Below, piece by piece: positions 2,319 to 31,300 of a DNA stretch of 64,000 nucleotides; positions within the stretch are counted from its first letter, which is position 1, and the number at the start of each line of letters is the position of its first letter. The stretch spans positions 28,026,001 to 28,090,000 of the forward strand of contig OZ076409.1 of assembly GCA_964187785.1 (NCBI GenBank), written 5' to 3'. The position numbers and the translations under genes were made by a program. The notes below the pieces were generated by a model. That model searched no databases, had not been told where the DNA came from, and saw only the letters and a list, made by a program, of their open reading frames with translations. The DNA comes from Amphiscolops sp. MND2022. Lineage: Eukaryota.

Positions 2319-2320
2319 TT

Positions 2321-4388: not shown

Positions 4389-7300
4389 GTGAGTTTTTGG
4401 CCTTCATTGTATTTTTATTGTTTCTGTGATAGCAGGAATATTATTGAAACCTCAAGATGCCAACTTTTTTTCAGTAAAATTCTTGTGATACTGAATAATT
4501 CAGATATTTTGTTCGGCAGTGACTATAATAAGCGTGAGAATTAAATTTTTCAAGCTGCCGACGGCAATTCAATTCTCGTGCAATGGAACGAGCAAGTGGT
4601 AATTATGCAATCGTACGCTGACGTCATTGAGATGAAGCGAGCGAATTTTCGTAATTATGCTTTCGTACGCCGAATTATTCAGATGAAGCGAATGAGTGTT
4701 AATTATTCGTTCGCCGAGAGCTTCGCCTGCATTTGAATGCGAATGCGAAACTTCGTCTACGCCCAGTAGTTATATTTGCTTTAGTCCGAGATTCAAAGAT
4801 GGTATAAACTGGTACAGTGATTATTTGCGCGCTAAATAAGGATTAAACAGGAGTGTATTGGTATTCCAGATATGATTCTAATATTAATGAAAGATTAAAG
4901 CAGAAATGATAAGTGTGCCCCGGAGGGGCCTATTTTTACAACTCACAAAAGTGTTAACTTAGGGTTCAAGCAAAAGGTAGCTGAATGGTTTCTATTTGGA
5001 TTGAGACAATAGTTGACAACCAAAATTGGCATAAGACCTTGTATTTCTATTTCAGTAGTCCGGACTTCAATTTTTTTACTTCGATTATTCTTTGTAGTGT
5101 AGACCATTTCCCTTTTGAAATATTGCTACATGGGCAACGGAGTATTATTTGCTCCATACGCGCTACTTTCTTGTTTCTTTTTTCATTTTCAAAAATTGTA
5201 ATATTTTTTGAAATTTGTTTTTTTTTTCGAGTTAGAGAAAAACAGATTTCGAATCTTGTTTTTCTTCGGTAATCCTGAAACATCCACCTTTATTACACTT
5301 GCGATAAGCAAGTGTTATGGGAAAGTGCGGGTGCTTTTTCCCCGCGACAATTCTTTCGTTTCAGCCCGCAAGTCGCATAGTTCAGGCGTTCGTGGTCTAG
5401 TGGTAAGATGCTTGCTTTTCAGCCCAGAGGGTTCGTGTTCGAACCCGTGAGTATGCGCTAATTTTTTTTCACCAGTATTCCGAAGCAGAAGGTTCTCACT
5501 AACGGACTTCACGTTCTGCAGTTTCTGCGAGACCCAAAAGATTGAATTCTGCGCAACTCCGTGTGGGCATATGCTCTGCACTTTGTGCATTGAGCAACAA
5601 AGTTGCCCTAAATGTCATCTATCAATTGTGTCACGCTTTGCAATTTTTTTCGATGCCTGATAACTGTGTCTTAATTCTTTAATTAAGGAATTAATTCTGG
5701 CCTCAAACGCTCTTTTTTTAAAAAAAAATGGATTTTTTAGGTCTTATTCCCCATTTTAGGTCTTATTCCTGATTTTTTAGGTCTTATTCCTCTATTTTTC
5801 ATTTTAGGTCTTATTCCTTTAGGTCTTATTCCTTTTGAATTTTTAGGTCTTATTCCTTAGGTCTTATTCCTGGTCACCCTTGGGTGGCTGTAAATAGGTC
5901 GAATTTTTCTGGTCGAAAGGACAGAGGTCGAACCTTTCGATCGAATTACAGGGATTGAATGGAATGCGGTCGAATTTTATCGTATTTGTTGTATGGCTCG
6001 GTCGCTTCGCTCCCTTCGCCAAGTAGCAACATTGAGGCATGGCCATATGGCACTTCGCTCCGCTTCGCTCCTGCATTCAGGGCACTAGGGTTATATGAAC
6101 ATATCTGACTACGTTATAAAAATTTCGATCCGAGTTGTTTCGATCCCATTCAAAATTTTGGTATGTCGACCTGAGGACTAACCCTGATTTTCGATCCCGT
6201 TCCTTCGACGTACATCCGCCCACCCCTTTCGCTTGAGGTGTTCTTATGAATTAACGGCGTTGTCTAAGGAGCTTGCGCCTATAAGGAAGACAACGTATGA
6301 AGATAGATAAAGGAACGAACTAACAGGATAGAGTTGAGTCTTTAGCCTTTTTGCAAACAAGTCAAGGTCCAATTCAGGTCCGCAAGATCCAAAGATGTGT
6401 TGAGCAACCAGATGTGGGTTGAATTTCAATCAAAGTCTCTGAAACTACGTAGTAAGTTCATCACAACAATTAGGCTGAGACTAAATACAGGATCAATGGT
6501 TTCGTAAATTGTACAAGCGTTTCATAGGGTACATTTTGGCCTGAAAATGACTTCAAAGTTTTATCATATTTGTTTTTTTGGGCAAAAAAGATGAAAAAAA
6601 TGTCGGAACTTTTTTCTCATTCGTAGCTCATATTTGTCAAAACTGACGAAGATACGGAAACCATTCTCTTTCGAGAAAGACAGCATTGATATAGGCGTTT
6701 TTTTGGACCAACAAAGTTTCCATCAAGTATGACACCTTCGTTTTGCTGGATTTTTTTGAGCAAATAAAGTTTATGAAAAAAATTTTCTGAATTTTTCCAT
6801 TTTCTCCCAACTTGTAGCTGATTTTTTTCAGAACTGAAAATAGATACGAAACCATTCTCCCTCACAAAGTGTGGCAAGGATGTGGGCTGCTTTTTGTACT
6901 ATCAAAGTTTCCGTCATGAAGTATGACGCCTTCGAAATTCTGCCAAAAATATATTTTTCTGAAAAAAATACTCAACTTTTTAGTTCATCAAAATTTCCAG
7001 ATCTGGAACTAGATATGTTCAATAGGTTTTTGGCCCTGGGATTTATTCTTTTTTAGCACCTTCTCCAGACCATTGAACGTTTCTGCTCGAGCCCAAGCGC
7101 GATATGCAGTCGCGCCTGTTTTTTTAACGTTAATCTTGATTTCAAAATTGGACTTTCTGAAAGGTGGAATATCATGTTTTGAAAGTTTTACTACACCAAA
7201 TGGTTGACATTAGAACAAGAGAGACTTGATGCAGGCTTCTTTGCACGTTCCTTAGTGTTTTTTTATCTTAAAAAAATTGCTGCTTTCCCTCCTTCTGATT

Positions 7301-10300
7301 TCACGTTTTCGATTTTTTTTTCATAAGCGGAATTGAGATTTTGAATTGTCACGGATTTCAACCCAGTATGTAAGACCAAAATGACATTTTAAAGCTTACA
7401 TCCGGAATGTAAGCCATTTTAAAATGTCACTGAGATTTATGATGAAATTTTAAATTGTCACGATATCAATCAAAAATCCTTTAAATTGTCACTGATACTC
7501 TATTTTAGCTCTTAAAGCCCAGGTTTGTTCCACTTTGTTTCACCTGAATGTTTTTTTCAGCTATCGAAATGATCAAATTTTATAATTTAGTATGATTTCC
7601 GCAGAGATGAACTTCTGAACATTTCCAATCAATTACGCAGTCTCAAGATTAAGTAGGATTAGCAAGTGCTGTGCAATTGACACGTGATGAAAGATGCAAA
7701 ATCAATTCGATAATGTCAATACATTTGGTGGAAATGATCACATCAATCGCCGGGGCTCAACAGGGAGCGCGACTAGTCAACAATCCAGTGCTAGCTCTTA
7801 CACAATCAGTTTCCAAAGTCAACGAGAAGGCTTTCTTTCGAAAGCTACAGGGCGACCGTTGGAGAAACATAATTCAGAAAAACAGTCTGATCGCAATGCA
7901 TTGTCTATCTTCTCGATGGACATCCAATTGAGTTCGCCTATAAAGTGAGTTTTTGGCCTTCATTGTATTTTTATTGTTTCTGTGATAGCAGGAATATTAT
8001 TGAAACCTCAAGATGCCAACTTTTTTTCAGTAAAATTCTTGTGATACTGAATAATTCAGATATTTTGTTCGGCAGTGACTATAATAAGCGTGAGAATTAA
8101 ATTTTTCAAGCTGCCGACGGCAATTCAATTCTCGTGCAATGGAACGAGCAAGTGGTAATTATGCAATCGTACGCTGACGTCATTGAGATGAAGCGAGCGA
8201 ATTTTCGTAATTATGCTTTCGTACGCCGAATTATTCAGATGAAGCGAATGAGTGTTAATTATTCGTTCGCCGAGAGCTTCGCCTGCATTTGAATGCGAAT
8301 GCGAAACTTCGTCTACGCCCAGTAGTTATATTTGCTTTAGTCCGAGATTCAAAGATGGTATAAACTGGTACAGTGATTATTTGCGCGCTAAATAAGGATT
8401 AAACAGGAGTGTATTGGTATTCCAGATATGATTCTAATATTAATGAAAGATTAAAGCAGAAATGATAAGTGTGCCCCGGAGGGGCCTATTTTTACAACTC
8501 AGAAAAGTGTTAACTTAGGGTTCAAGCAAAAGGTAGCTGAATGGTTTCTATTTGGATTGAGACAATAGTTGACAACCAAAATTGGCATAAGACCTTGTAT
8601 TTCTATTTCAGTAGTCCGGACTTCAATTTTTTTACTTCGATTATTCTTTGTAGTGTAGACCATTTCCCTTTTGAAATATTGCTACATGGGCAACGGAGTA
8701 TTATTTGCTCCATACGCGCTACTTTCTTGTTTCTTTTTTCATTTTCAAAAATTGAAATATTTTTTGAAATTTGTTTTTTTTTCGAGTTAGAGAAAAACAG
8801 ATTTCGAATCTTGTTTTTCTTCGGTAATCCTGAAACATCCACCTTTATTACACTTGCGATAAGCAAGTGTTATGGGAAAGTGCGGGTGCTTTTTCCCCGC
8901 GACAATTCTTTCGTTTCAGCCCGCAAGTCGCATAGTTCAGGCGTTCGTGGTCTAGTGGTAAGATGCTTGCTTTTCAGCCCAGAGGGTTCGTGTTCGAACC
9001 CGTGAGTATGCGCTAATTTTTTTCACCAGTATTCCGAAGCAGAAGGTTCTCACTTTGTCGCCACTATGAGACTCCTCTCTTTTTTCGGCTTTGTGAGACT
9101 TTTTTTCAAAAAAAAATTTTAATGTCCTCAAAGGGTCCTCCCTTCAATTTGTTTGATATTTTGCAACAAAACAAATGTTAAAAAATCCCTAAGGGTCCCT
9201 TCTTGCAGATTTTTCGGCACTATGAGACTGTTAAAATTCTCATTTTTTTGTTTTTTTTTGAAAATTTCTCAAAGACTGCAATGGGTTCCACCTCATTTTT
9301 TTTGAAATTTTGCAACAGAATGGTTGTTAAAAAATCTCAAAGGGCCTCCCTGATACAGTTTTCGGTATTGTGAGTAATTTCAAATTTTTTGTCCTAAAAT
9401 TAGGTTTTCTGAGACCCAGCACGCTATATCCGAATTGTTTTTTTCAAGACCGTTTTTTTCTATGCTACTTTTTTTCTAATTGGTTTTCATCGAAGCCCCC
9501 CCTCAATTTTTACTTGAAATGAAACGTTTTGCGAGCATAAAGGACTGCTCAAGGTTTTCGGCACTATGCGACTTACCGGAGACCTTCTAAAAATTTTTCG
9601 AAACATTTCGAATTTTTTTCCTCATTTAAAAATGTTACCGGTTGAGGAAGATGGGTTTTTTGCTGTTTTCAGTTGGGGAAGAATGGTTTTCGAGACTTAT
9701 GCCCATCCCTTCGGGTATTTTTTGGCGCTGTAAAATTGATGAAGTTTTACCATAGTCCTTTTACCCTTGGTTCTACGTATGATATTGCTTATTTGGTTTT
9801 CTTCAAAAGTTCGCAACCTTCTGCGCAAATGTTTGCGAAGCACGGCTTTGCCTCTGTGTAAATTTTGTCAAATTTAAACTAACGACGCCTGTGCTACACA
9901 GACATCAGACAATCTTGCCGCCACCAGACATTCCGCCGACAACCGGGAACTTCTAGAACAAGATGACTACAGAGCAATATCAAAAACTGAAAATAATCTA
10001 AAAAGAGACAATTCACTGGCGACCGAAATTTTTTAACTCTGAAAAAGAACAAAACAGGACACGCCTTTATAGATACTTTTAATACAACATTGTCCGCTCT
10101 CCTAGACAGACATCAAGATGCGTTGTTGGTCGTTGTGGTGATGCCCCGTCTTTTACTTCCGCGAACGAAAAGCGAAAATGATGGATCACACAACCAAACG
10201 GTAACGCGACGGTTCGAAATGTGGCTGAGCGAGGACAGTTCGACGATCTGTTTCATGAAGCGAACCCCCTCCAACTATGTCTCAGGAGATCTCAAGCCAT

Positions 10301-13300
10301 ACAAAGAGACGTTTTCAAAGACCTCGGTCACCATGTAGCATCTACACAAATTTCGAATGCGCTCAAATGTCTAGATCTGGAAGGTCACGTACTGTCGCTA
10401 AGCGATAAAGTTGATAAAACAGTGAATCAACTTGCTCGAGAAACATCCAAAGCCAGTAGACATAAAGAAAATTACTTAGTTGAGAATTCTCTTGAACAAA
10501 CTATGCCCTTTCACCCCTCAATCTCTGGCCAACTTAACGCCCGAACGATTCGAAACCCGCCATGAAACCTCAAGGTAGTCACGGGCCGTTAGGTTTAATC
10601 GCAAATGAATGGCGACGTTTTCTGACACTCTCTGGGCAATCCTCTGTTGACATCTGCAAGTGCTTAGCGGACATAGCAAGGCTTATCGCTACAACCGAGC
10701 TACCTTCCGAAACCCTCGACGCCTATAACGCTTGCCGTTTGATTCCATCAGAGAAGAATGCCGTTGTCAGGCCCATTAACGTTGGTGAAGTGCTTCGGCG
10801 ATTAACTGAAAGAAGATTCTAAAATGCCTCTGCAATGATCTCAAACAGCTGGGAGGCACCTTGCATCTCTGTCCAGGTCAAAAATGCGGAACAGGATTGG
10901 CCATTCACTCTTAGAGACGCCGTTGACAAACCCGAATCGGAAGGAGTTCTCCTAATGACGTCACAAATGCATTCAATGGTTTGAACTGAAAATTGGCACT
11001 CAGAAACATAACGGTTATGTCCCTCCCTTCTCATCCCTCTGAAGAATTCATACGCATCGCCTTGCTCCCTATTCGTCAACGGTGAAGAGATTCTTTTACA
11101 AGATGGCACGACTCAAGGTGATCCTCTTCCGTTGGCAATGTATGGAATTGCCCTTTTGCCACTTGTGAAGTTACTGGAGAACACCGATATAGTCCAGAAG
11201 ATCTACATCGACTCGCCGAGGCTTTAGCCGAACACGGCCCAGCGTTTGGACACCACATTACCAAGTGCCACATTATAGCGAAAAAGAGTCACATAAAAAG
11301 CGCCAAGGAAATTCTCAAGAATAAAGATGTTTATATCTTAGAAGGGACTCACCAGCCTGTCTAGATTCCAAAACAAAAGCAGTGTCAGAGCAAGGAAAGA
11401 CCATTTCGAAAGTCTCACAGCACGCCAAAACATCCTCTCAATGTTTATCAAGCGTGTTCGTGAAATACGAGCAACGAAGAGTCGAAGCTGAAAACAGCTC
11501 TTTAACCCGCTCGTGTTTGCCACCACAGGTAGAGCCGCACCGACTGCCTCTACGGTAATGAGCAGGCTTGCATTCAAACTGAGCGATAAGAGTGAAGACA
11601 CTTATGCAGAGGTAATGGGCTGCTTAAGAGCGAAAGTAAGTTGTTCAAACGACAGCCTGAGATCATCGATTCTGCGATCAGTGCAATAGTGTAAGAGGAA
11701 AGACTGTCTTAGTGGAACCACCACATGGTAACGTGCATTTTCTCGCTGATTCCACTTTGCAACGAGCAATGTCTAACATTGTGATACTAATGGAGTAATT
11801 TATAAATTTTCCTCCACTTGCCGATGTCTGCAGTGTTTGCATGTGACCGTTAGTGACACTGCGAGGAGGCTCTGCAGCTTGCAGCGTATACGACTCTCTC
11901 CAACTTTTTCCGACTTGCCCTCCTTTTAACAACGGTCTCCTTCCATATTTGTCCCAACATGAAAAATGGGTTTCAGTACAATTTAAAAAAGGGAAAAAAC
12001 GAACAGCGCCTGTGAAAAGAAGCTATTGTCTAGTTATTACCGCGCGTGAGTTCGCGGTTATCTGCAGCTGTGGCAGTGACTGGGAGTCAGGTGCATGTGG
12101 CTTCGAATCCTACGCTGAACCAGTTTAGTGCTGGCAAAACCCTTTGTGTTTTTCCGGCACTGTGCCACTTTTTTCGAGAACTTTTTTTTGGGAAGTTTTT
12201 TGCGAAGTTAAAGGATATTCTTTTGGGTTTCTCGGCACTATAAAACTATTTTTTTCGAGAAATTCGTCGAATTTTTACAATTGGGTTTTTGATGTTTTGA
12301 GTTAGGGAAAAGCGATTTTGAGAGTGTATCCCTTCGGGCATTTTTGGCATCGTAAATTTGACGACAATTTTCATGACAGTGTTCCTGTGCATATGTAAAA
12401 CACGACTCATTTTGAACCTTAAGCGGGGTGCCGCCTAAAGCCGTTCCCAACTTGTTAGCCCTTTTGGAATCGCTTCCTCAGATATTGTTTATTTGTTTTA
12501 GAATTCTCTCACTGCTCAAGAATTGTATGACATTGTATGCAGCCAACTGTTGCTACAAGAAAAAGAATATTTCGGGCTGTTCACCTTCGACGAGTTGTTA
12601 GTCTGCCTCTAGGTTTCAGACACTTGTAAGACAAATCGTGACGTTTTTTAAATTTACTTCTGTTTTCAGGCGCCACAAACATTGGTTGGACATGAAATCC
12701 AAAGTGACTTCTTGCGTCCTGGACTCTTCGAAGCGTCATTTTGAAATCTATCTCGGCGTCAAGTACAAATTCGATTTTTTTTTCCACCAAATTCAAATTA
12801 AAAGTTCTGTCCCTCGAAGTCCCTAGTGTTGTTTGCAGTAATATTTTCAATCAAAATATTGGACTATCGTGGGGAATTTTGTAACTTTTTGTTTGTAATT
12901 ACTTGAAATCTCAATACTGTTTCTGAAGCCGATTCTTTGCAATTTTCGAAAACTAGGTCACAAGGTGATTTTGGACCTTTTTTTCCTGAATCACTCCTAT
13001 GTTACGCTGTAGCTCAGGAACATTTCCAGAGTTCCATTTTCAGTGAGAATTACAGTAATTTTATTTCCGATACTCGAATTTTTAAATGTGAAATTTCAAT
13101 TTCCTTGTTTCTCAACTGATATTCGTTAACGACAGAACTTTTGTTACCAGAATACGAAAGTTCAGTAACTCAGTGATAATGTTTTTACAGGTTCTTCGTT
13201 TTGAGTTTGAAAAGACTTCGTCATTTCACAACGATAGAACTATTCTATCTTCAGTGTCGTAAACTAGTGTTTGGGGTTAGTGCAAACTTTCGCTGTTCTT

Positions 13301-16300
13301 GAATTCATAGTTTGACGGTACGGCTGTTGCAAATCTTCTCCATTACTAAGTAATAAAGTTGCTATTTGAATCTGGCCATTTGTCTTCACGCTTGAAAGGC
13401 TAGTTTTTCAACTACATCGTGTACGAGAAAACTTAACTGCGAAGAATGGAAAAGATGGAAACGGTGTTTGTATTCAACGGAGCTTAGCGAAAGCTCAACT
13501 ATATGTCAATAGTTAAATGTAAAACTCATAAAATCGTTTCCTCCTGATGTTTCCCCTTTTGTGTTTTCGTATTTGATGTAACTTTTCTGTGCACTTGTCA
13601 AATCTGATACTATATTCTGTGAGTGCAGTACACTATATACAATACGATATTCTACAGTGCAGTTTTGGCTGTTCGTGTTACTTACCAATTAAAGCCATGG
13701 CTAATCAGCATTTACCCCGTATCATAGAGAACGATGCTGAGACAGGGGCAAAGTCTACTAATCAGATTCGGCAATGGCCCTCTCGTTCTCGACATAATGA
13801 TGACAACAGTTCCATGGTATCGACAATCCCTCCCGAGGAAATTATTTTTGCTTCCCTGATGAACTTGAAGGCTCAACGCCGTAGCTGCTGATGCAATCTT
13901 GAAACTGATTGATTTCTCGACTAGTGGATAGTTGAATTTCCAAAGCATAGCAAAATAACCAATAGCGTGACGTTTTCACTAATTTTTCTAGATCATGATG
14001 TTAGTAAAGAGTTAAAATTGGCGACTATGGGGGCACGGCAATTCGTACACACGACATTTCGTACACACGACATCTCGTACAAAAACCAAAACCAGACATT
14101 TGGTACAATAGCGAAACCAGACATTTCGTACAAAAACAAAACCAGACATTTCGTACAAAAATGAAACCCGACATTTCGTTCAATTTATATTATACAACTT
14201 ATTATTATAACGTAGTCAGCTATGTTCACATACCCCTAGTGCCCTAAATGCAGGAGCGAAGCGACGTGCCATTTGGCCATGCCTCAATGTTGCTACTGGG
14301 CGAAGGGAGCGAAGCGACCGAGCCATACAACATATATGCTAACCTCTTTAATTGAATCAAGTTCCATACATATTGGCTGTAACGGCACTGAAAGCTAGTA
14401 ATTCTGTTGTTTGAGACCTATTTTGCAAATCTGTTCAATTTAATTTTGTACGAAATGTCGGGTTTCATTTTTGTACCAATTGTCCGTGTACGAAATATCG
14501 GGGTTTTGGCTATTGTACGAAATGTCGTTTGTACGAATTGTCGTGGTGCCGGCCACTTCAAATAAAAACTCTATTTCATGTTATGATGAGAAATTGTCCA
14601 GACGAGAATTCTTAAAGCAACACGTCATTGAAGAATTAAGAAAACTATTTGCTGCGGTACACCTAATATGTAATTGCAATCACTATTTGGGCTTATTGTT
14701 GAAACAGATTTGAAGAGGCACTGTAATTTTTTAAGCAAATTTTGCGAAGGCAGTTTCTCGAAGATGTTTGATTATCAGATGTTTCATCTGGTCTTGAAAG
14801 TTGGGAAGCAAAAATGATGTGTATTTAATGTAGTGGTTGACAGAAACGAACAGATTTTCGGTCAAACGGTTTCATAAAGACAAAATAAACAAAAGCACTA
14901 TCGTAGGGCTCCTCATAGTGATAGTGTTCTGTACTGCCATTATTGTAATGATGAAGCTCACCGAAAACTGTAGAGGAGATATTCCAAAGTACGGCTTCAA
15001 ATGTGCTGGCAAAATACGCAACTCGTCTAAGCCCAATGATGATTACTTCTGCTACGATCCGCAGAAGTTCGGCTGTCATTACCTCAGTCCCGACGAGGAG
15101 ATTCATGTTCACGTGTTCGGAGAGATCAACAGATGCAATGGTGTTCGGTTGACAACCCAAGTACGTTTTGCTCAAAATACTTTATCATGAACTCATCCAA
15201 ATTCTTAGTTTAAAATAAATTATTAGGTTGGAGCTTTTTTTCGGGCTAGTTTCGGGCAGGTGAGAATTTTTTCGGGCTACTTTCGCTGAACTGAGAGTGT
15301 GTTTCATTACTTTGATGTTTTGCACTACAAACTGCCGAGCCCGTAAGATTTTTATTAGTAATTTTAATTTTTGTGGAATGTGCAATACTAACTAGCGTTT
15401 TTCGACTCCTTATAGCGGGCTTGTCATCGCTAGTGTTTCATGAGATGCCACCGGCATCAAAAGCTAAAAGCGTTTAAATATAGCCGAGCTCAACCGAGAA
15501 ACTATTGATGATAAACTCAACTGAGAAAAGGTTGCTTACTGAAGTGTTTTAAATTTTTCCGACGAATTCCCAGGAAATAAATGTACTAATGATTTAAGCC
15601 AAACAAAAAGCTTTGAAACATTGCATTCACTTCTTAACGTTCGTTATCAGGTAGAGAAAATTGTTCTGTGGGATAAAGACCTTTTCCTGCACTTTGGAGA
15701 CGATAATTTGGGAAATTGTGTCATTCAAGATGGTGGATATTTCTACTGTCACCACAGGGGTGTGTTCCTCGTGGAAGGGGTCTCCGAAAACAACCCTCCC
15801 GATCTGTATTTCAAAATCACTATCAATGACACCAACCATGGTAAGCGTTAAATCACTAAACTAAAAGGAACCACGCTGATTTTAAAAATACAGTCATGAA
15901 CTGATTTCAGTCGACACTCATTACAGTATAGTCTCGTTATAGTACAACCCTCGTTTTAGTACACACCTATTAAAAGTCCCAAGCCCCAAATAAGTAAGCA
16001 TACTAGTAAATCTACCCGATATTGTACAGTCTCGTTACTATACAACCCTCGGTATTGTACACTTTTCTCATTGGTCCCATTAGCTGCCGCCACGTGCAAA
16101 CAACCCTCGATATAGTACACGCGTACATGCGCCGGTAATTACATCATAAATTTATGTCATCCAATCATCCGTATTAAGTGCACATAAACAAACAGCTAAC
16201 TTTACACGCCAGCATCAAAGGTGAGCACTGCGCAGTTGAACACAGGGGCCGTGTTGTACAATTAACTGCCCGATACTGTGGTAACCAGGGATATTAACAT

Positions 16301-19300
16301 ATCTTTTCAATTGGAACATTTTATGAAAATAACGTAGTGATTTTCATAAAAAGTGCATTGGCGGAATTTAATTTGCGGCATTCTAATTGATGCAAACAAT
16401 TGATTTTTTCACTTTGCAATTAATTGTTGATAGCCCCTGGTTGAACACCCAACATGAGCGCGACAACAACTGCGGTACCAAAGAGAAACCAGCGTTCGCT
16501 CCTGGACAAATTTACCATTATTAAAGCATTTGAAGCTATACGCAACCAGCCGGGTGCTAAAGCAAAGATTGTCCGCGATTATGGCCTACCAAATACTTCT
16601 TGTTTGAACCGCATCCTAGAGAAGAAAGAGGAAGTTTGTTCAAAATTCGAAAACAATTTTTCGGCCGACCGCAAACGATTTAGAACCAGTTTTTACCCTG
16701 AGCTTGATCGCGATTCATATGCCTGGTTTCTACAGATGCGTTCGCGCAATATAGAACTTTCTGGCGATTTAATTTTACAACAGGCCAGCCGAATGGCAGC
16801 AGAAAAACAAATTCAAAATTTTTCTGCCTCGCAGGGGTTTCTCGGAAGATTTAAACAGAGGTACAACATAAAATTTCGTAAGCTCTATGGCGCTGCGGGC
16901 AGTGTCAACACCGACGTAGTTTCTGGTTGGATGGAAAGACTCCCGAGTATATTGGGCAATTATGAGCCTAAAGACATTTTTAACTGGGACGAGACGGGTC
17001 TATTTTACACTCAATCACACAATGCTTCATTTATTACGTCGGCTGAAAACGAAAATAGAAATTTACGTGGCAGAAATCAAAGAAAACAGCGTATTACTGT
17101 TTTGGTCATGGCCTCAATGGCCGGGGAAAAATTACCACTGGCAGTTATCGGAAAGTACCGAAGCCCTCGTGTTTTCAAGAACGCTAGATTGCCTGTTGAA
17201 TATTATTCACAGAAGAACAGCTGGATGGATGCCAGCATTTTTGAGAAAATTCTTGTAAATTTCGACAAAGCCATGGGAATTCAAAATCGGAAAGTGTTGC
17301 TGTTTATTGACAACTGTAGCGCCCATCCACAGATTTCATTACAAAATGTTACCATTCAGTTTTTCCCGCCCAATGTTACCTCTAAATGTCAGCCTCTAGA
17401 CATGGGCATCATACAGTGTATGAAACACCACTACAAAAACGAAATTCAACGTCGATTTCTTACGGCCGTTAATTGCGGCCAAGACTTGCCGAAAATTACG
17501 TTACTGGACGCATTGTTTTTTCTGAAAAAAGTCTGGTTGCAACAAGTGTCTGCAGCAACAATCAGCAATTGCTTTCGGAAAGCAGGGTTCCAATTACCCG
17601 TTACCTTAGTGACTGATGTTGAAGAAATTGAGACAGAGACTGAGCATACTGACAAGACTTTCGACGACGATAACCTAACCGTGTGTTCCCCAGACACCAC
17701 TGCCCCGGGACCAGACATGGAAGAAGCGACTGAGAATGATTCTGATAATTCGACAGACGCCGATGATTGTGAGGTTCCAACATCTGCGAAGGCATTTCAA
17801 GCGATAAAAACGCTACATCAATATTTCTCGACACATAACGGCGAAGAAGAGGCCCTTATAGTTGATAATTTGTATACTAAACTTGATCGAATCGCTAAAA
17901 ACTCATTATCGCAAGCGCTTGTCACCAGTTATTTCACTGTTGAATAAAAATCTTGTTGAAAATTTTGTATTCGTTATAGTACAACCCCCGGTATAGTACA
18001 CTTTTAGTCTTTCTCCCGAAGAGGTGTACTGTAATGAGTGTCGACTGTAGTTATAAATTTCTTGATGAAAAGGCTAGGACGTTTTAGTCTGTGTCATCGT
18101 TGCACAGTAATTAACATCATGTTAATAACAGCACTGTATTTTACATGTAATTTACTCGTTGCATTCTAACATTTGTTAATTGACAAGTTCATCTAGGGAC
18201 TTTTTGCACAGCTGAGCGAGAGTACATGTAAGCCTGGCGACACTTAAATTATCACTTTCAAATTATTTTATTCCAATCCAGATCAATAATGCCGCCGAAT
18301 AACGGCTACTTGCTTTTCTACCCTAGGTTTGACCTATGGTAAACTGCGTGCTCAAATGGGTATTGAGAAAGCAGGGAAGCTGGCTTTCTTGTTCAGACTC
18401 GTTAATTTATGATATTAATAGGATATGCTGTTATTAACGTGTTTTTTAGTCGGCGCTTTTAATAATAAAAGAGCCCGACTATTACAGTCACTCAGTTTTT
18501 TTTCTTTTTTTAAGACAGACTCGAAGCGACGAACGTTAACGTTCAACTAAAGGAAACTAAATACCAGGGAAACGCAACTAAGTTATTCCCTTTGGTTTTT
18601 TTACTTTTTAAACGTAACCTACAAAACCGAACGGGACTAAAGGGTCCCCCCTTTCGATTTTTTTTCGGCACTGTGCGACTTTTTTTCGAATTTTTTTTGT
18701 CTCCAAAAGGTCCCCTCTTCGATTTTATTTGAGCCTTAGATATAGCGCCGACTTGAGACGTTCCCGTCTGTTTCTTTTATTCAAGACACACCAATGCGTC
18801 CAAAATGCACAAGACTGCCGATATGGGATAAATCAATTGCTGTAGTCGTTACAGCGTTGACTTGCGAAGACTTCAATACATTTGCAAAACTAGACAAGAT
18901 CTCCCCCTTTTGAGCTGTTTCGGAATTTGCAACTTTCTGAAAAAGTTTCATCAGCTGGTGACCCTTCGTTCTTTCCTGTTTTCTTTTGAGAAAAAAAAAC
19001 ATTTTCATACCCTAAACTGCCCCCCTTTGTTTTTCGCCACTAAGCGATTTTTTGAATATTTGTTTTCAAATTTGCTTTTCAATAAATGTTTCAGTTAGGA
19101 AAAATCTTTTTGATTTTTAATCGTTTTTCGAATCTCATGGGTGCCTCATACGGGTATTTTCGGCGCTGAGTTGAATAAAAATCATCAGTTGTCAAGAAAA
19201 GAGGTCTCTTGGTCGCGTGCCGAAGTTTTTTTATTGGATAAAATTATGAATTCAAGTGAGAAAACCTTGTTATTTACAATAAAGCTGTAAGGAAAACAAA

Positions 19301-22300
19301 CAGCCATGGCTAATTCAATTGATTCTTCGAGAAAAAGCCCATGTTTTTTTGTTCCATTGTCTTTTTTATTAACCATGGCTTTCTTAAGAGTCCAAATGCT
19401 GATCCAAACTGATTTGATTGAGGAAATTGGTTGAAGATCTGATTACCCCATTTGTATTTAAAGTTCTCTCGATCATATTTGACTTGTTGCTTTAGATTTC
19501 TGTGGTTCTCAGTCTCGCTGTGTGATCAGCACTCGCCAAGTTGGAACTGTGACTCCCCACCGCAGTGCAGTCAAGTGTCGGTCGCCCGACCCAGAAGTGT
19601 TCACCATTGTCACAGACCCCGATCTGCTCTTCTTATTGGACGAGTCAAGTACGTCACACTCAGTATTCTATAATTCAGTATTACTTTCGAACTTTCAAGT
19701 GAGAAAGTCTAAGCGTCGGTTCAAAAAACGAATGAATTGAAGTGTACAAGTGAGGGAAAATGCGCATATGATTGAAGTGCAGTCAAGATTTCACGTTTCC
19801 TCTCAAGTGATTTTTTTAGGAGTCGGAAAAATTTTTCGACTACTTATGCAATCGTGTTGTTTTTTTTTTCTCCCGACCTTTTCATGAAAATTTCAAATTT
19901 CTCAAAAACTGTCCATACGATTTTCACGAAATTTTGCACAGTCATTCTACACCCAAAGGGGCCCCTGCGTGTGCAAAGCCATCAAAATCGTATGGCTGGG
20001 ATGTGAGAAACATAGCCAAAATTAGCCCAAAAATGGCCAAAAAACAGCCATTTTTCGACTTTTTTCGATTTTCTCAAAAACTGTCCATACGATTCGAACG
20101 AAATTTTCTACAGTTATTCTACACCATATTAGAGTCCTATATGTGCAATGGCATCAAAATCGTATGGCTGGGATGTGAGAAACATAGCCAAAATTAGCCC
20201 AAAAATGGCCAAAAAACAGCCATTTTTCGACTTTTTTCGATTTTCTCAAAAACTGTCCATACGATTCGAACGAAATTTTCTACAGATATTCTACACCATA
20301 TTAGAGTCCTATATGTGCAATGGCATCAAAATCGTATGGCTGGGATGTGAGAAACATAGCCAAAATTAGCCCAAAAATGGTCAAAAAAGGGCCATTTTTC
20401 GACTTCAGAAAAAAACCTAAGCCGACTCCTTTACCGCACATGCGGCTCTGGTTTCAAAAACTCAGCAGTGTTTCGTAAGTGCTCTAAAAACTAGTTTACC
20501 ACCCGGCTGTCAAATAAGGAGACTCGTCGTCTAAAACTGTTTTTTTTTGTCTTTACCTAACCGAAAAACCTAAAATTAGAGAAACTTTTCTAAAAGTGTT
20601 CATGTTCAAAATTCATCATGCTAGCTATTACCAACTATAAAGGTAGTCAGTCTAATAGAAAAAAAAGGTTTGTTCGAGTGACCGCTGTTTTTTATCAGCC
20701 AATAAATCGCTGTAGATGCCGACCCTATAAATCACATGAAATGCAATCATTTGGAGGCTTCCAATCAAGTGCAATAACAAGCCTTGCTTGTCCGCCAATT
20801 TCTCATTGAAGTTTTGATTTGATTCTTAGCAAAGAAATGACGCCGCTTAAGACTTTCTTTAGTGGAATTGTTTTTGCTCATGCTAAAACCGTTCTGCAAC
20901 GTCAGTCAAGGTTTAAGCTCAAATAGGGTTAAGTTTACCAAGTGTTTTTGGGTTTGCATTTTGTCTGGAATTATGCCTTACATCAGAATGAGAGTGACAT
21001 TCATGACAGGATTTCCCGTGTAAACTATTGTTCCAAGTCCACTTCGCCTGCAACTATCATTTAAAGCTGAGCTGTCAATTGAAATTGTAATGAAGCCGAA
21101 ATTTGAATTTGCAGCTTTTCGACCAACAAGGTTGATACGGATAAAATGAAAGCACAAAATAAAGTAGGAGTTAAATATTTTGAAAATCCGAAACAACAGC
21201 GTGCAATGTTTAAAAGTTTGGTTGCCAGATTGTTATTAAACTTAGCTGAGAAATGGCATTACATGCTATTAGGTCCAGCTCGGTGCATTGACGTCGGTAC
21301 ATGTACCGTAGCGCATTTTGTAACACTACACGAAATATCGATCTACACGATTCTGACAAAATACTCGAGGAAACAATCTGAATCAAACAAAAAAAGGTCT
21401 CTTTGTTTCTTTTCAGTCGCCGCTTTTCTTCAAAAAAGCGTCGACGGATCTTTTCTGTTAATTCAATCCCCCCCACAGTAAGCGCGGAAATTTTAATTCC
21501 CCACCACTATCAGCGATGAGTTTCAGTTGCAGTTAAAGCTATAGAATGCTGCAATTTGATTGGTTGTTACTATTAATTCAATCATTATTTCATTTGACCG
21601 CTCAACTGGGGGGGGAATTAACAGAAAAGATCCGCGTCGACTCTAGTCATGGCTTTTCGTCAGTTTATTTTTTCGATGCACCTGAAGTGACTCAAAAAGT
21701 TCTATCAAAAGTTGTACCTGTTGGCCCTTATTGAGATGAAGCGAATGAGTGTTAATTATTCGTTCACGGAGAGCTTCGCCTGCATTTGAATGCGAATGCG
21801 AAACTTTGTCTACGCTTAGTACTTATTTTTGCTTCAGTCGGAGATATATAGGCGGTATAAACTGGTACAGTGACTAATTGTGCGCTAAATAATGATTAAA
21901 CAGGAGTGTATTGGTATTCCAGATATGATCCTATTATTAATGAAAGATTAAAGCAGAAATAATGTGTGCCCGGAGGGGCCTATTTTTTGATATTTTGCAA
22001 CATAATAGATGTTAAAAAATCTCAAAGGTTAAATCCAAGGAAAAAGTGGGTTTCGAATTTTATGCGTATCCCTTCGGGTATTTTTTGGCACTGTAAAATT
22101 GATTAAATTTTAACAATAGTGCCTTTTGCAAATTAAAAACTTTACTTTTTTGAACCTTGAGGGCACCGACTTTGGCCGTTCCCGGCTTGTTTGTTTTGTC
22201 TTCAACATGTGATCTTGCACAGACCCGTGTTTGAAATTAATGTTTTTTCAGGTACAGTGTTTCTAGAAACAAGCCAGCTGGACAATTGGACTGTTTGGAA

Positions 22301-25300
22301 GTGTTATGTCGTCATTGATCTTGACAAATTTGACCAAGGTGTTTGTGAGGCAAACAACAACTGAGCACACTTTCCCACTAACTAAACTATCTGATTTGTT
22401 TATATAGTTGTAGTTTATTTAATCGAATGCTCTAGTTTTTCCATTTTCGGAGTAAACTCTGAATCAATCTTTAATCTTGCTGTTCTCCAGTGTGAAGTGA
22501 TACGATAAAGTGTAAAATAATATGGATCCTACCACTGAATACTGTAAATTCTGATTTGCAATCATAGATTTACGTTGTTCAGTTTTGACTGAATTTAATT
22601 GTCTCGACACAGTTAGTTGAAGCTCTAATTGAGTTGAAGCTCTGCTGTTCCATATCGAACCCTTTGTGCTTCCAAATGATGACATACGGTTGGTTGATGA
22701 AATTGTCTTGGCTACAGAAAAATAATACGCTTCAAAAGTACCGTCAAACTATTTACAGTCAAATCTCATCAGATTTTCTCGATATAACGTAAATTTTTGT
22801 ATGAATTTATCTGGAATTCCTTCCGAGCATTTGAACAATTTTGAGGTTTGACTGTAGTTGGCAGTGGCATTTGAATTTGAATAAGTGTCTAACTTATGGG
22901 TTATTCTTATTCAGGGTGACTTGAAAGCCGACAGTGAGACTTTATTTGAATTGGCTGCGACCGCTCTACAAGAAATTTATGGTGATTTCGAAAGGTAACC
23001 AATCCGAGAAGAAAGTGAATAAGTATATAAATCAAGAAGGGAGTCAAAAAATGTTTCATTTCAGCCTTAAGGTGACAGAAGACTGCTTGAAAAGTACACC
23101 TCTGCTCTCTGTGGATGCATGGTCCAGTGAAGACTCTTTTGCAATTTGGTAATAATTCTCAAACGCCTTTATTATCTTTAATTTTGATATTGAGAACCAG
23201 CAAGTCGAAGAAACCTTGTTTATCTTTGTGGCACCAAAACCAAAAAGCTGTGGAGAACTTAGGCCCACGTTCTTTTGCTTGTAATTTTTTTCAGTGAATT
23301 CCATGAATTGCATTTTTGACAGTATACCGTTGATTTAATTCAAAGACTGTATACAATACAATGTAGTTTTGATATTTTAAAAGCTGTATACTGCGTAAGC
23401 TGAAATGTTGTAAAAAGCGTAACTGCTAGTTTTTTTCCAGATTTCTAACTTTTCATTTCATCGCCACTACAAGTCTTAGCTACTTCAATTCTGATAGCAG
23501 TGATTCAACTCTTTCATTGAGATGAAGCGAACTAGTGTAACTAACTAATTCTTCCGTCAAGAGCTTCACCTGCGTTCAAATATGAATGCCATACGAGTGT
23601 TAACAATTCATCCGCTGAGAGCTTCGCCTGTGTTCAAATACGAATGCGGAACGTCATATGCTTTTTAGCTGTATTTTCGTTTATTCAAGTAACAAAACTT
23701 ATAGTGCAAGATTTGTCCAACACATCTGTTGATAATTATATCCAATTATGTTTTTGGATTGAGAAAGATGCTTTGTTCATTGAACCTTAAAGTTAATGGT
23801 GATTGTATCCTTAAGCAGAAATATTACGGAGCCCTTCTTTTCAGACATTGAAACGACCCAATTGTACGGTAATTTTTATTATTTCTGCGATAGCAGGAAT
23901 ATTATTGAAATCTCAAAATGTCTACATTTTTTCAGTAAAATTCTTCGCATGATGCTGAATAATTCAGATATTTTGTTCGGCAGTGACTATAAGCGTGAGA
24001 ATAAATTTCTCAAGCTGCCGACGACATTTCAATTCTCGTGCGATGGAACGAGCGAGTGGTAGTTATGCATTCGTACGCTGACGTCATTGAGATGAAGCGA
24101 ATGAGTGTTAATTATTCGTTCGTTGAGAGCTTCGCCTGCTTTCGAATGCGAATGCGAAACTTCGTCTGCGCTTAGTAGTTATACATGTTTTCTTTAGTCC
24201 GAGAAGAATTAAAGGCGGTGTAAACTTGTACAGTGATTAATTGTGCGCTAAATAATGATTAAACAGGAGTGTATTGGTTGGTATTCCAGATATGATTTTA
24301 TTATTAATGAAAGTTTAAACAGAAATAGTAGTGTGCCCCGGAGGGGCCTTCTTTTTCGACTTCAGAAATTCTCGCAAAAGTTAGTTTTAAAGTTTCTAAT
24401 TTTGATCGGCTAGATCTGACAACCCTGTTAGAACCAAAGTACGCGTTTGGTGACAAAAGCGACTGGATATCATTCAAACCTAATTTGCGGCCGGTAAATT
24501 GCAACGGCTAAAATTTTGATGATCTAAATGGTCAATTAATACTTTTAGGTTTTCGAGTGTTTGGATTTAACAATTCAATTTTTAAAAAGAGTACTATTTT
24601 GGCATTGGTGGAACAGTTGGCGCAAGGGGTCCTCTGTTTTCGACACCATTTCAATAAGTATGAAAACTTGTGAGATCATGATCAAACTAAGGAATGTAAA
24701 ACTGCACAAAACAACATTGAACTCAAATCCACTAAAATAGGGTACCCACTGTGAGAGCCTGGATCCAGAACTGCTTGAGAACCAAACACCAAACTTTAGA
24801 GTTCTACAAAAAATTTTGATAGCTAAAAATTCGAGAAGTCTACAAAATACTAAGTGTGCGTAAACTTTGGTACCCTACCATATGTCTTTAGGTTGAATAT
24901 TTTACTTTCGTTGTTTCGCACTGTATTTGTATCGGACTGGCATTTTTTAACAAAACTGGTAAAGCCATCAACAATCGTTGGTTGATATGCATCACCGGCT
25001 GTCCTTGCAACTTACAAGTTTTGCTTATGAAACATGTTGCATTTCAATCGCTGAATTAGATCCTTCACACCGGACGACGGTACGCTTAAATAAACCTCAT
25101 TCCAACTGCCCAACTTTTTGTTGTGTCGGTTTGACGAGTTGAATTGTCACAATTTTCCTTGCTTTTCGTTTTCGTGTTTGAGTCTTGTACAGTGTCATTT
25201 TTCGAATGGTGGCGTCTATTGGAGCGAGTAACGTCTAAAATTGTTTCGGGAATAACTTCTAAACGCATTACGTCTAAATATCAATGTTTTAAGATAGGGA

Positions 25301-28300
25301 ATGATCACGACTTGACTATACACGTTATTCCCCTTTTGCATTTAGATGAAATTCTTTAGAAGTTATTCCTGCTTGCTTTTTGCATAACGTCTCTTGCAAC
25401 GCTGTCGAATGCCCTCTAGCCATACGTGATTCATCTTGAAACAATCAAGTGGTAGGCTGTTTGAAGTTCATCTCCGATTTGAAAAAAAAATCGTTCTTCG
25501 TGGAATCGACTTAATGTCTCCGAATTAGAAATAACGGCTCCGAATTAAGTTTTAAATTAAATATCCAACTGACTCAAGATAGCTATGTTGCTCCAGATTA
25601 TATGATCCGCTTTCCAAAAGGTTAATCACTTCGGCGCCTTTTTGGCAAACTTCCACACCAAAGTGCTACCTAGAAATTGTTAGTTTGGAAGTAATCCATC
25701 CCTTATCACACCGAATTCTGTCGTGTTAATTACTTGGAAATGGTGTTTTTTCAAGCGGTTTTTTTTGCAAATAGCTTCATATTTTCCGTATTTCATTTTT
25801 TTCAAAAATTCAGGTTTGTAGAACTATTAGTAGAAATTTTTGGTCACTTATTTTTTTAAAAGTCGGCTACTTTTTTAAAAAAAAATAGTTTTATGATCGC
25901 TTGTCTCTTTTGGCGAGAGGAGTTTGAAGTCAATAAGCGGATCAGCTACTACAGACATAATGTAATACATCTAATTTCTGGTGACTATTCATACAGCCGA
26001 TTTTATAAAATAGGTCTCAAAAGTAGAATTAAATTACTAGCTTTCTGTTAGTGCTGTTGTAGCCCATATGTATGGAACTTGATTTATTCGAAGAGGGTAG
26101 CATATGTTGCTCCTTCATTTAGGGCACTAGGAGTATATGAACAAATACAATAGTGTAAGAAAAGAACAACCCTTATTTGTAAGAAATAATTTGGACTGCA
26201 TGTAAACAGAGCTAGCATTTTACATGAGGCTTTCTTTCGTTCTCTATTTTACTCATGAATTTAAGGGACTGGAAAGACCAATTGAATGTTTACGATTATA
26301 GGTACAATCGCCTAATTTAGCAGATTCTCCTCATATTAATTTTATCGGTGATAAATCTGAAACCGAAAACATAATCCCCAATCTTTACGAAGAATAGCTA
26401 TGTCTTACGTATTAAGATAGTAAATAAAATGAAATTATAGAAAACCCCTTTCAAAAACTAAATAATACCAATTATCTTGATGTAAAATAGCTCAATGTCT
26501 TCAGTGAATAAGGAAGTACAATAGTGTAAGGAATGAACTGAACCTTTATTTGTAAAAAAAAGAATTGGACCAAAACAAAACTAGCTCTGATTTCTGCTAT
26601 CGTCCAAGTTGCATTTTTGACAGTATACCGTTGATTTAATTCAAAGACTGTATACAATACAATGTAGTTTTGATATTTTAAAAGCTGTATACTGCGTAAG
26701 CTGAAATGTTGTAAAAAGCGTAACTGCTAGTTTTTTTCCAGATTTCTAACTTTTCATTTCATCGCCACTACAAGTCTTAGCTACTTCAATTCTGATAGCA
26801 GTGATTCAACTCTTTCATTGAGATGAAGCGAACTAGTGTAACTAACTAATTCTTCCGTCAAGAGCTTCACCTGCGTTCAAATATGAATGCCATACGAGTG
26901 TTAACAATTCATCCGCTGAGAGCTTCGCCTGTGTCCAAATACGAATGCGAAACGTCATATGCTTTTTAGCTGTATTTTCGTTTATTCAAGTAACAAAACT
27001 TATAGTGCAAGATTTGTCCAACACATCTGTTGATAATTATATCCAATTATGTTTTTGGATTGAGAAAGATGCTTTGTTCATTGAACCTTAAAGTTAATGG
27101 TGATTGTATCCTTAAGCAGAAATATTACGGAGCCCTTCTTTTCAGACATTGAAACGACCCAATTGTACGGTAATTTTTATTATTTCTGCGATAGCAGGAA
27201 TATTATTGAAATCTCAAAATGTCTACATTTTTTCAGTAAAATTCTTCGCATGATGCTGAATAATTCAGATATTTTGTTCGGCAGTGACTATAAGCGTGAG
27301 AATAAATTTCTCAAGCTGCCGACGACATTTCAATTCTCGTGCGATGGAACGAGCGAGTGGTAGTTATGCATTCGTACGCTGACGTCATTGAGATGAAGCG
27401 AATGAGTGTTAATTATTCGTTCGTTGAGAGCTTCGCCTGCTTTCGAATGCGAATGCGAAACTTCGTCTGCGCTTAGTAGTTATACATGTTTTCTTTAGTC
27501 CGAGAAGAATTAAAGGCGGTGTAAACTTGTACAGTGATTAATTGTGCGCTAAATAATGATTAAACAGGAGTGTATTGGTTGGTATTCCAGATATGATTTT
27601 ATTATTAATGAAAGTTTAAACAGAAATAGTAGTGTGCCCCGGAGGGGCCTTCTTTTTCGACTTCAGAAATTCTCGCAAAAGTTAGTTTTAAAGTTTCTAA
27701 TTTTTATCGGCTAGATCTGACAACCCTGTTAGAACCAAAGTACGCGTTTGGTGACAAAAGCGACTGGATATCATTCAAACCTAATTTGCGGCCGGTAAAT
27801 TGCAACGGCTAAAATTTTGATGATCTAAATGGTCAATTAATACTTTTAGGTTTTCGAGTGTTTGGATTTAACAATTCAATTTTTAAAAAGAGTCCTATTT
27901 TGGCATTGGTGGAACAGTTGGCGCAAGGGGTCCTCTGTTTTCGACACCATTTCAATAAGTATGAAAACTTGTGAGATCATGATCAAACTAAGGAATGTAA
28001 AACTGCACAAAACAACATTGAACTCAAATCCACTAAAATAGGGTACCCACTGTGAGAGCCTGGATCCAGAACTGCTTGAGAACCAAACACCAAACTTTAG
28101 AGTTCTACAAAAAATTTTGATAGCTAAAAATTCGAGAAGTCTACAAAATACTAAGTGTGCGTAAACTTTGGTACCCTACCATATGTCTTTAGGTTGAATA
28201 TTTTACTTTCGTTGTTTCGCACTGTATTTGTATCGGACTGGCATTTTTTAACAAAACTGGTAAAGCCATCAACAATCGTTGGTTGATATGCATCACCGGC

Positions 28301-31300
28301 TGTCCTTGCAACTTACAAGTTTTGCTGATGAAACATGTTGTATTTCAATCGCTGAATTAGATCCTTCACACCGGACGACGGTACGCTTAAATAAACCTCA
28401 TTCCAACTGCCCAACTTTTTGTTGTGTCGGTTTGACGAGTTGAATTGTCACACTTTTCCTTGCTTTTCGTTTTCGTGTTTGAGTCTTGTACAGTGTCATT
28501 TTTCGAATGGTGGCGTCTATTGGAGCGAGTAACGTCTAAAATTGTTTCGGGAATAACTTCTAAACGCATTACGTCTAAATATCAAGGTTTTAAGATAGGG
28601 AATGATCACGACTTGACTATACACGTTATTCCCCTTTTGCATTTAGATGAAATTCTTTAGAAGTTTTTCCTGCTTGCTTTTTGCATAACGTCGTCTCTTG
28701 CAACGCTGTCGAATGCCCTCTAGCCATACGTGATTCATCTTGAAACAATCAAGTGGTAGGCTGTTTGAAGTTCATCTCCGATTTGAAAAAAAAAATCGTT
28801 CTTCGTGGAATCGACTTAATGTCTCCGAATTAGAAATAACGGCTCCGAACTAAGTTTTAAATTAAATATCCAACTGACTCAAGATAGCTATGTTGCTCCA
28901 GATTATATGATCCGCTTTCCAAAAGGTTAATCACTTCGGCGCCTTTTTGGCAAACTTCCACACCAAAGTGCTACCTAGAAATTGTTAGTTTGGAAGTAAT
29001 CCATCCCTTTTCACACCGAATTCTGTCGTGTTAATTACTTGGAAATGGTGTTTTTTCAAGCGGTATTTTTGCAAATAGCTTCATATTTTCCGTATTTCAT
29101 TTTTTTTCAAAAATTCAGGTTTGTAGAACTATTAGTTGAAATTTTTGGTCACTTATTTTTTTAAAAGTCGGCTACTTTTTTTAAAAAAATAGTTTTATGA
29201 TCGCTTGTCTCTTTTGGCGAGAGGAGTTTGAAGTCAATAAGCGGATCAGCTACTACAGACATAATGTAATATATCTAATTTCTGGTGACTATTCATACAG
29301 CCGATTTTATAAAATAGGTCTCAAAAGTAGAATTAAATTACTAGCTTTCTGTTAGTGCTGTTGTAGCCCATATGTATGGAACTTGATTTATTCGAAGAGG
29401 GTAGCATATGTTGCTCCTTCATTTAGGGCACTAGGAGTATGTGAACAAATACAATAGTGTAAGAAAAGAACAACCCTTATTTGTAAGAAATAATTTGGAC
29501 TGCATGTAAACAGAGCTAGCATTTTACATGAGGCTTTCTTTCGTTCTCTATCTTACTCATGAATTTAAGGGACTGGAAAGACCAATTGAATGTTTACGAT
29601 TATAGGTACAATCGCCTAATTTAGCAGATTCTCCTCATATTAATTTTATCGGTGATAAATCTGAAACCGAAAACATAATCCCGAAAACATAATCTTTACG
29701 AAGAATAGCTATGTCTTACGTATTAAGATAGTAAATAAAATGAAATTATAGAAAACCCCTTTCAAAAACTAAATAATACCAATTATCTTGATGTAAAATA
29801 GCTCAATGTCTTCAGTGAATAAGGAAGTACGATAGTGTAAGAAATGAACTGAACCTTTATTTGTAAAAAAAAGAATTGGACCAAAACAAAACTAGCTCTG
29901 ATTTCTGCTATCGTCCAAGTTATTTGAAAATCAAGTAAAACATTCTAAAGTTTTGTTGGGCACTTGAAATGTAGGTTTGCAAATAATGCAAAAACTTGCT
30001 AATTTCATTTTTCATTGATTGTATTTACTACTGAATTGGCACATGGGACATCATTTTGGACAATTTTGTAACGTCTGGCACCTAATTTGGAACTTTTGTT
30101 TATTTGGCAGGTACTTCTTCATTTACTGAAGACATTCAACTATTTCACATCAAAAAAATTGGTATTATAAAGTTTTTGAAAAGGGTTTTCTGTTTTTTCA
30201 TTTTATTTACTATCTTAATACGTCGGACACAGCTATTTTTTGCAAAGACTGAGGATTGTTTTCCGTTTTAGATATTTAGCCGATAAAATTAATATCAAGA
30301 AAATCTGCTATTTAAGGCGATTGTACCCATTATCTTAGACATTCATTTGGTCTTTGCAGTCTCTTAAATTAATGGGTAAAATAAATGATGAACAAAATCC
30401 TCATGTAAAATGCTAGCTCTGTTTATATGCAGTCCAAATCATTTCTTACAAATAAAGGTTCAGTTCTTTTCTTACACTATTGTACCTGCCAAATAAACAA
30501 AAGTTGCAGAAAGGTGCCAAGTGTTACAAAATTGTCCAAAATGACGTCCCTAATGCCAATTCAGTAGTAAATATTATCAATGAAAAATGAAATTTGTGAA
30601 GTTTCTTTATCATTTGCAAACCTACGTTTCAAGTGCCTAACAAAACTAGAAAGTTTGTTTAATTTATTTTCAAATAACTTGGACGATAGCAGAAATCAGA
30701 GCTAGTTTTTTGTTTTGGTCCAATTCATTTTTTACAAATAAAGGCTGTTTATTTCTTACACTATTGTAGTTCTGACAAAATCAGACACGCGTTTTCAGAT
30801 TAGGGAGTTCAATTTGATTTCAAATTTCAGTCAATCAGATTACAGCATAAACAAATATTCTGCTGTTTGAAAATTAGATGTGTATTACAATTTGTCTGTA
30901 TCACGTTCGCCCATTAAGCAATCCAGCGTTGACATTGATAAATGATCGTTCGCTGGGAGCCTGTAAATTCATTTACCTTATTTGTACCATTATCTTCCGT
31001 TCAATTGTACAGAATTATTGCTCCTAATTCAAGTAGTATCAGAAATTTTCAGTGAAACTCATTTGGTTTTCATGTTTGCAAATTTCAAATTCCGAAGAGC
31101 GCGATTTCAAAGTGAGGCGCCATCTGCAGAAAATGTGATTTCTCAGTGTTTAGTTTGAGAAACCAAAGTTCAGGACTACATGTTTCCCAAGTGAAATGTG
31201 GCGCGAGATGGACAGTTATTGGTTTATGAAGGGTCATTATAGAAATGAAATCCGTTCAATGAATTCCATCAAGCAACAAAACGCCAGCTGTCGATGTTCT

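Follow-up and report, generated by a model that had tools for sequence, protein, structure and literature searches.

The window analyzed here is a 64,000-nucleotide stretch of the acoel Amphiscolops sp. MND2022 (contig OZ076409.1 of assembly GCA_964187785.1, positions 28,026,001 to 28,090,000), in which a gene of five exons lies within an intron of another gene, FRMD4. All features described below are on the forward strand unless otherwise stated. The host was traced through seven exons, which splice into an open frame of 291 amino acids, the last exon being included only in part. Coding exon 1 (4137-4388) encodes the start of the FERM F1 lobe and is followed by exon 2 (12502-12596; Pfam FERM_N, E 2.9e-5), exon 3 (12670-12762) and exon 4 (13191-13275), which ends in a phase-0 donor (GGG|GTTAGT). 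Beyond intron 4 (13276-22914; 9,639 nt, phase 0, GT-AG ends) the frame resumes in exon 5 (22915-22994; acceptor cag|GGT, phase 0), where FERM_M starts (E 0.17), and continues through exon 6 (23065-23148) to exon 7 (examined part 31628-31811), where FERM_M ends (E 1.3e-6). Exons 1, 3 and 6 are supported by the open spliced host open reading frame (ORF). The host junction 13275/22915 proposed in an earlier note on this DNA is borne out, both of its sides being in phase 0 and the host ORF remaining open across it.

The nesting of the inner gene within FRMD4 is real. Intron 4 contains an intact five-exon gene on the same strand, with 300 codons free of stops and frameshifts and with GT-AG ends at all introns. 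The protein XP_063725471.1 of Symsagittifera roscoffensis matches four of the five exons in the same order (tblastn E 2e-25, 6e-24, 3e-10 and 4e-7), a result with E < 1e-3 in none of 100 shuffled-query controls, and is 48% identical to the 300-amino acid inner ORF over residues 50-295 (E 1e-86). Exon 2 (14834-15160), which shows the hydropathy peak and would encode a membrane helix, a cysteine-rich stalk and the first beta strand, is 41% identical to this ortholog. Exon 3 (15651-15840), the predicted core of the outer domain, shares 63% identity with it and 40-45% with two paralogs, and the coding part of exon 5, up to the TGA (22252-22364), shares 67%. Exon 4 (19496-19648) is recognized at E 4e-7 and its phases fit; a 33-nt in-frame mini-exon at 18327-18359 was rejected as the fourth exon since it has no counterpart in the ortholog. 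Exon 1 (13697-13816; 40 amino acids) is plausible, backed only by its ATG start, phase and phase-0 donor: when compared with the first exon of the ortholog, 669 of 2000 shuffles scored equally well. No Rfam match was found between 12000 and 24000. The earlier note had placed a same-strand, TNF-like gene between FRMD4 exons 4 and 5; the nesting and the open five-exon ORF stand, while the TNF-like identity is not supported, with no Pfam TNF match.

That the introns of the inner gene carry transposable elements, as had been noted before, was also confirmed. Inner intron 3 hosts a 2.14-kb DNA transposon of the Tc5/pogo type (15908-18047) with 21-bp perfect inverted ends and an open transposase frame of 497 amino acids (16454-17947; Pfam DDE_1 E 1e-38, HTH_Tnp_Tc5), and other repeats account for 21% of the host intron (local BLAST). 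A copy of the transposase with seven amino-acid differences is present on another contig record, and none of four members of its cluster lies on the 625,549-bp record, hinting that the insertion may be recent or polymorphic.

With regard to the host, its exons match the FERM domains of moesin and ezrin in addition to Pfam FERM_N and FERM_M. Two same-strand exons about 13 kb beyond the window match CUPID (PF11819; E 2.7e-15 and 2.4e-4), with the exons between host exon 7 and these two only partly traced. We take FERM plus CUPID to be the combination that defines FRMD4. The genome that we searched comprises 1.07 Gb, with the window on contig C1, and exon 7 has one match in it, indicating that FRMD4 is single copy. 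Candidates for host exon 6 at 23894-24058 were rejected because they are located in a repeat. Host exon 1 is spanned by a 3.55-kb tandem duplication (1947-9054; 99% identical), the second copy of which lies between exons 1 and 2 and includes a second exon 1 with a 1-nt deletion (7694-7944). Both copies of the duplicated exon are found on a single record of the ENA contigs. A second tandem duplication (23308-29921; 3.3 kb, 99%) occupies host intron 6, and no host exon was found inside it. In a later FRMD4 intron, the region 59500-60400 is GC-richer and holds long overlapping open frames, one of which resembles SUR7/PalI below the cut-off (E 2e-5).

The inner gene belongs to a small family, annotated as 'uncharacterized', of which we have so far found three genes in this genome, two in S. 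roscoffensis and one in Convolutriloba macropyga; the named homologs come only from these two convolutid acoels. Besides XP_063725471.1, the inner protein resembles XP_075258182.1 (39% identity) and XP_063723948.1 (31%). The three annotated homologs begin with a methionine of their own, are devoid of the FERM part and match the inner exons only, and XP_063725471.1 has no match to the host exons. Judged from these alignments, the inner protein is separate from the host and the two have no coding sequence in common. Gene fragments called on contigs of the S. roscoffensis cluster end at matching breaks, ahead of exon 2 and on either side of exon 3. The two paralogs in this genome (C7:57.23-57.24 Mb and C1:53.97-53.99 Mb) have their exons in the same order and retain the phase-0 intron that precedes exon 3. 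When compared with them, conservation peaks at codon position 2 (0.70-0.71) and falls to 0.37-0.38 at position 3. No FRMD4 exons were detected in the 60 and 80 kb regions around the paralogs, FERM-like matches nearby having been rejected as spurious. In a tree of six sequences, XP_063725471.1 is joined to the window gene with a support of 66, and XP_063723948.1 to the C7 paralog with one of 100. The tree is only indicative, as it used rough models of the paralogs, with exon 4 of the C7 paralog omitted and that of the C1 paralog in a wrong frame. The C. macropyga homolog (P0004) has a second, C-terminal hydrophobic segment that the other family members do not have. An intronless frame of 1,401 amino acids with PDZ, RGS, RBD and GoLoco domains, similar to RGS12, lies tail to tail with the C1 paralog (C1:53.956-53.961 Mb).

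The inner protein starts with approximately 60 polar residues, has a single hydropathy peak near residue 62 and continues into a cysteine-rich beta region; in the ortholog the helix is 79 residues in. It is likely a type II membrane protein with a transthyretin-like outer domain of the TTR-52 type. A profile of exon 3 built from the three paralogs and searched against 1.84 billion proteins returned seven at E <= 0.001: three that are, or cluster with, the named acoel proteins, three ENA fragments near acoel members, and P0007 (E 2.9e-4), which is a TTR-52-family protein (PF01060 E 1.8e-14). Profile and P0007 align in hhalign with a probability of 60% over 50 columns, and the acoel family has in common with a PF01060 protein the motif order W-D-x-D...DD-x-L-G...G-x-F...P-D-L-Y-F. 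In the language-model Atlas, the leads were DUF870 and TTR-52 clusters (0.76-0.82), all under 0.9 and hence at the level of a lead only; a feature search with the full ortholog had no match there. The structural model of P0003, a homolog of 205 amino acids, is of moderate confidence (predicted local distance difference test, pLDDT, 56; predicted template-modelling score, pTM, 0.58). Foldseek ranked TTR-52 (3uaf) second for this model, with E 8e-3, probability 0.99 and a target template-modelling score (TM) of 0.50, which is below significance, and other matches included intradiol dioxygenases and hydroxyisourate hydrolases. A wide fold search returned transthyretin-type chains at Z 5-6, among them 3uaf (Z 5.4, root-mean-square deviation 4.7, 108 residues aligned). 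Each of these lines is weak, and the three methods agree; we consider it quite probable that the inner protein functions as a transthyretin-like protein anchored in the membrane. If nematode TTR-52, which binds phosphatidylserine or lipid, is a guide, the acoel protein may serve at the cell surface as a ligand- or lipid-binding recognition protein, the analogy being weak.

We then considered how the host would skip the inner gene. Acceptors were scored with a small position matrix derived from 19 sites and ranked against 498 intron AGs. Host acceptors fall between the 95th and 99.8th percentile, and those of inner exons 2 and 3 at the 82nd and 89th. The difficulty raised by the earlier note, that the host must skip the inner exons, proved well founded: the strongest acceptor of the intron is that of the inner last exon at 22252, and splicing of the host into inner exon 4 or 5 would truncate FRMD4. 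The inner gene needs a 3' end formed ahead of 22914 or close to it, and neither AATAAA nor ATTAAA occurs between the inner stop and that point (22364-22914).

The reading that we favor, and which we regard as rather probable overall, is that the inner gene has its own transcription start, that the host transcript removes it as a single block, and that it encodes the likely type II, TTR-52-type protein. In a read-through host pre-mRNA, every inner acceptor would pair with a nearer inner donor; given a weak acceptor at the front of the inner block and a terminal exon at its end, the host donor at 13275 would be left to join 22915. This joining would require that the inner 3' end be unused, and collisions and premature termination would be kept down by a weak 3'-end signal and by expression in largely separate cell types. 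Regulated splicing or mutually exclusive expression of host and inner gene, as the earlier note proposed, may be at work, and by analogy with other nested pairs the cells that express the two genes are probably distinct for the most part. A spliced leader may also be added to the inner pre-mRNA at 13658.

Several observations weigh against this account. The acceptor at 22252 is top-scoring in the host intron, so skipping is not due to weak sites; several GT sites resembling donors lie past the inner stop; the host donor is only 421 nt from the inner ATG; and the 550 nt free of AATAAA are within chance expectation, the signal occurring about 0.9 times per kb in the window. On the protein side, the model of the 336-amino acid ortholog folds poorly (pLDDT 41), and every fold match is below significance (E > 1e-3, Z < 8) and was obtained with a homolog rather than with the window protein. 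No acoel member reached the PF01060 cut-off when exons and full-length homologs were searched; by these profiles the family stands formally outside PF01060, to which it is linked only indirectly, through P0007.

A U-rich stretch ahead of the inner gene, followed by a candidate unpaired 3' splice site (13526-13657; ctacag|, first exon base 13658), may have a further function. The AG at 13657|13658 has the sole positive score within 13276-13696, at the 93rd percentile of the intron AGs, and is separated from the nested ATG by 39 nt with no ATG between. In S. roscoffensis, 30% of genes are trans-spliced according to the portion of the genome paper available (PMC9911081). The leader of that species occurs exactly in the present genome and has 2,378 matches there, compared to none for the reversed control; 1,247 of them are gene-type copies (leader plus GT), many in a 904-bp tandem array, and about 1,100 are not of the exact leader-plus-GT type. 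One of two leader copies that were read carries a GTAAGT donor and an Sm-like AATTTTTGA site. The genome encodes RNAs for spliced-leader trans-splicing, which had previously been overlooked at this locus and add a possible mechanism. The site at 13658 could be the outron or 5' untranslated region acceptor of a separately promoted gene, or a leader site that frees the inner mRNA from the host transcript.

Within the array of gene-type leader copies (C1:16.23-16.43 Mb, 904-bp period), the two units that were read diverge downstream of the donor: one has the Sm-like site and the other folds into a long hairpin. Elsewhere on C1 and C2, sequences that differ from one another follow exact copies of the leader, whose upstream flanks are unrelated. 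A 1.5-kb element is common to two of these copies, and in three a hairpin comes directly after the leader. They resemble trans-spliced RNAs that were copied back into the genome. On the minus strand of the window, two copies resembling the leader (5 mismatches in 32) start at 2914 and 6475, in the first duplication.

If 13658 is a leader site, FRMD4 and the inner gene could form an operon-like unit in which the inner gene has no promoter of its own. The FRMD4 pre-mRNA would either be spliced in cis from 13275 to 22915, or receive the leader at 13658 and end before 22915, which would destroy the host message. The abundance of leader genes in the genome, the U-rich stretch with an unpaired AG 39 nt ahead of the inner ATG with no ATG in between, and the short space for a separate promoter all favor such a unit. 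However, the candidate AG reaches only the 93rd percentile with a matrix of 19 sites, and trans-spliced genes commonly have a promoter of their own. Furthermore, the family needs no FRMD4 host because its paralogs lie outside FRMD4 genes, and 'operon' is unmentioned in the accessible text of the S. roscoffensis genome paper (PMC9911081). We therefore regard a promoterless inner gene as unlikely. The fuller version, in which the two genes are a single either/or unit and trans-splicing at 13658 releases an undescribed membrane-anchored TTR-52-like mRNA while the host message is discarded, seems a little more doubtful again. If true, it would amount to an operon-like switch in Xenacoelomorpha, and would place a recognition fold of the engulfment type, regarded as typical of nematodes, in worms that host algae.

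The main role of the inner exons might instead be to provide an alternative 3' end for FRMD4, from which a membrane-anchored fusion of FERM F1 with the transthyretin-like domain would result. Host exon 4 is in frame with 13658, 14834 and 15651, yielding predicted fusions of 488, 435 and 326 amino acids, respectively, and inner exon 1 is in frame with host exon 5. This fit is weak evidence because phase 0 is the most frequent intron phase. The fusion product would retain a single FERM lobe, and the FERM part is absent from all three annotated homologs, each of which begins at a methionine of its own. A fusion as the main product is therefore improbable.

Only marginally less credible is that a misassembly placed the inner gene in this position or that it is a pseudogene. 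The two 99%-identical tandem duplications close by in the window could invite such an error, but no large duplication lies in the intron itself, and a dead gene would hardly retain 300 codons without stops or frameshifts together with canonical splice sites. An exact look-up of 16 window ORFs found six (3/6 and 3/10), or eight when two variant alleles are counted, the downstream host-exon ORFs not being among those found. ENA contig records of 54,635 bp carry the ORFs of both copies of host exon 1, of inner exon 1 and of the transposase, as well as the ORF at 21146; records of 625,549 bp carry variants of two ORFs, that of inner exon 1 and the one at 59886. The equal sizes suggest that the records of each length represent one contig, an argument against a gross misjoin although not a proof of it being absent.

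Least credible among the alternatives is that the inner protein belongs to the TNF family as a divergent ligand, as its first label implied: its type II topology, beta-rich ectodomain and G-x-F/Y-x-C motif, which presumably recalls TNF strand C but only superficially, would fit, whereas the TNF profile PF00229 matched neither exons nor full-length homologs, and all positive leads (profile, language model and fold) point, if weakly, to transthyretin-like proteins. TNF entries were also missing from the top 50 rows of each of three fold searches, which does not in itself exclude TNF, and 'TNF' is absent from the available text of a paper on acoel immunity (PMC12849515). A Pfam search of the whole genome for TNF and TTR-52 returned nothing and is uninformative, since the controls fell below the cut-offs and the domains are split by introns; the family profiles matched solved-structure sequences only spuriously or through membrane helices.

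The claim of the earlier note that most nested genes are antisense to their host holds for Drosophila, where 71% are antisense in the figures available from Lee and Chang 2013 (PMC3814207), and holds only weakly for mammals, whose nested-gene orientations are described as 'broadly similar' in the portion seen of Montibus et al. 2024 (PMC11694760). According to the same Drosophila figures, 73% of the same-strand nested genes are single-exon and the multi-exon ones have a median of one intron, compared to four in the acoel gene; we calculate that the same-strand multi-exon class amounts to approximately 8% of the Drosophila nested genes. As far as they are described, the intron-containing members of this class resemble the acoel gene in having introns of their own inside a same-strand host intron, with the attendant risk of mis-splicing and transcriptional interference. 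The acoel genome differs in carrying leader genes, as Drosophila has, to our knowledge, no leader trans-splicing. Drosophila nested pairs diverge in expression, in the available part of Assis 2016 (PMC5174743), and a nesting level of about 10% is called normal across animals (PMC10282587, from the text available). The catalogues of mammalian host and nested pairs, as far as available, also take in non-coding genes (PMC11694760; Kaer et al. 2011, PMC3192792). Among the literature matches listed, we found no nested FRMD4 case, and neither the locus nor the protein family is described in those on acoel transthyretin. The acoel nesting is thus an uncommon example of a known minority class, and more of the novelty lies in the previously undescribed acoel family of proteins. 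Selection apparently disfavors same-strand nested genes that have several introns, and an intact case with four introns in a conserved scaffold gene offers a clean test of how a host skips strong internal splice sites.

The closest parallel for the protein is C. elegans TTR-52 (PF01060; PDB 3uaf), whose transthyretin-type beta-sandwich the acoel protein may share. TTR-52 is a small secreted engulfment protein from a family with a nematode-specific expansion, according to the part seen of PMC5773127, whereas the acoel proteins are 245-336 amino acids long, carry a hydrophobic helix at the N-terminal end as well as conserved histidines and additional segments rich in cysteine, and remain below the Pfam cut-off. 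This small acoel family may extend TTR-52-like folds past nematodes. For the arrangement of the two genes, the nearest counterpart is perhaps the 'alternative' operons of C. elegans: as there, a gene held in an intron could be freed from a common pre-mRNA by trans-splicing, in the acoel case only as a possibility, and unlike in C. elegans no operons are reported in the available text of the acoel genome paper (PMC9911081). With leader genes present, the FRMD4 locus tests whether acoels free nested genes by trans-splicing. It is by leader trans-splicing that the C. elegans 'alternative' operons are resolved, as Morton and Blumenthal reportedly described in 2011.

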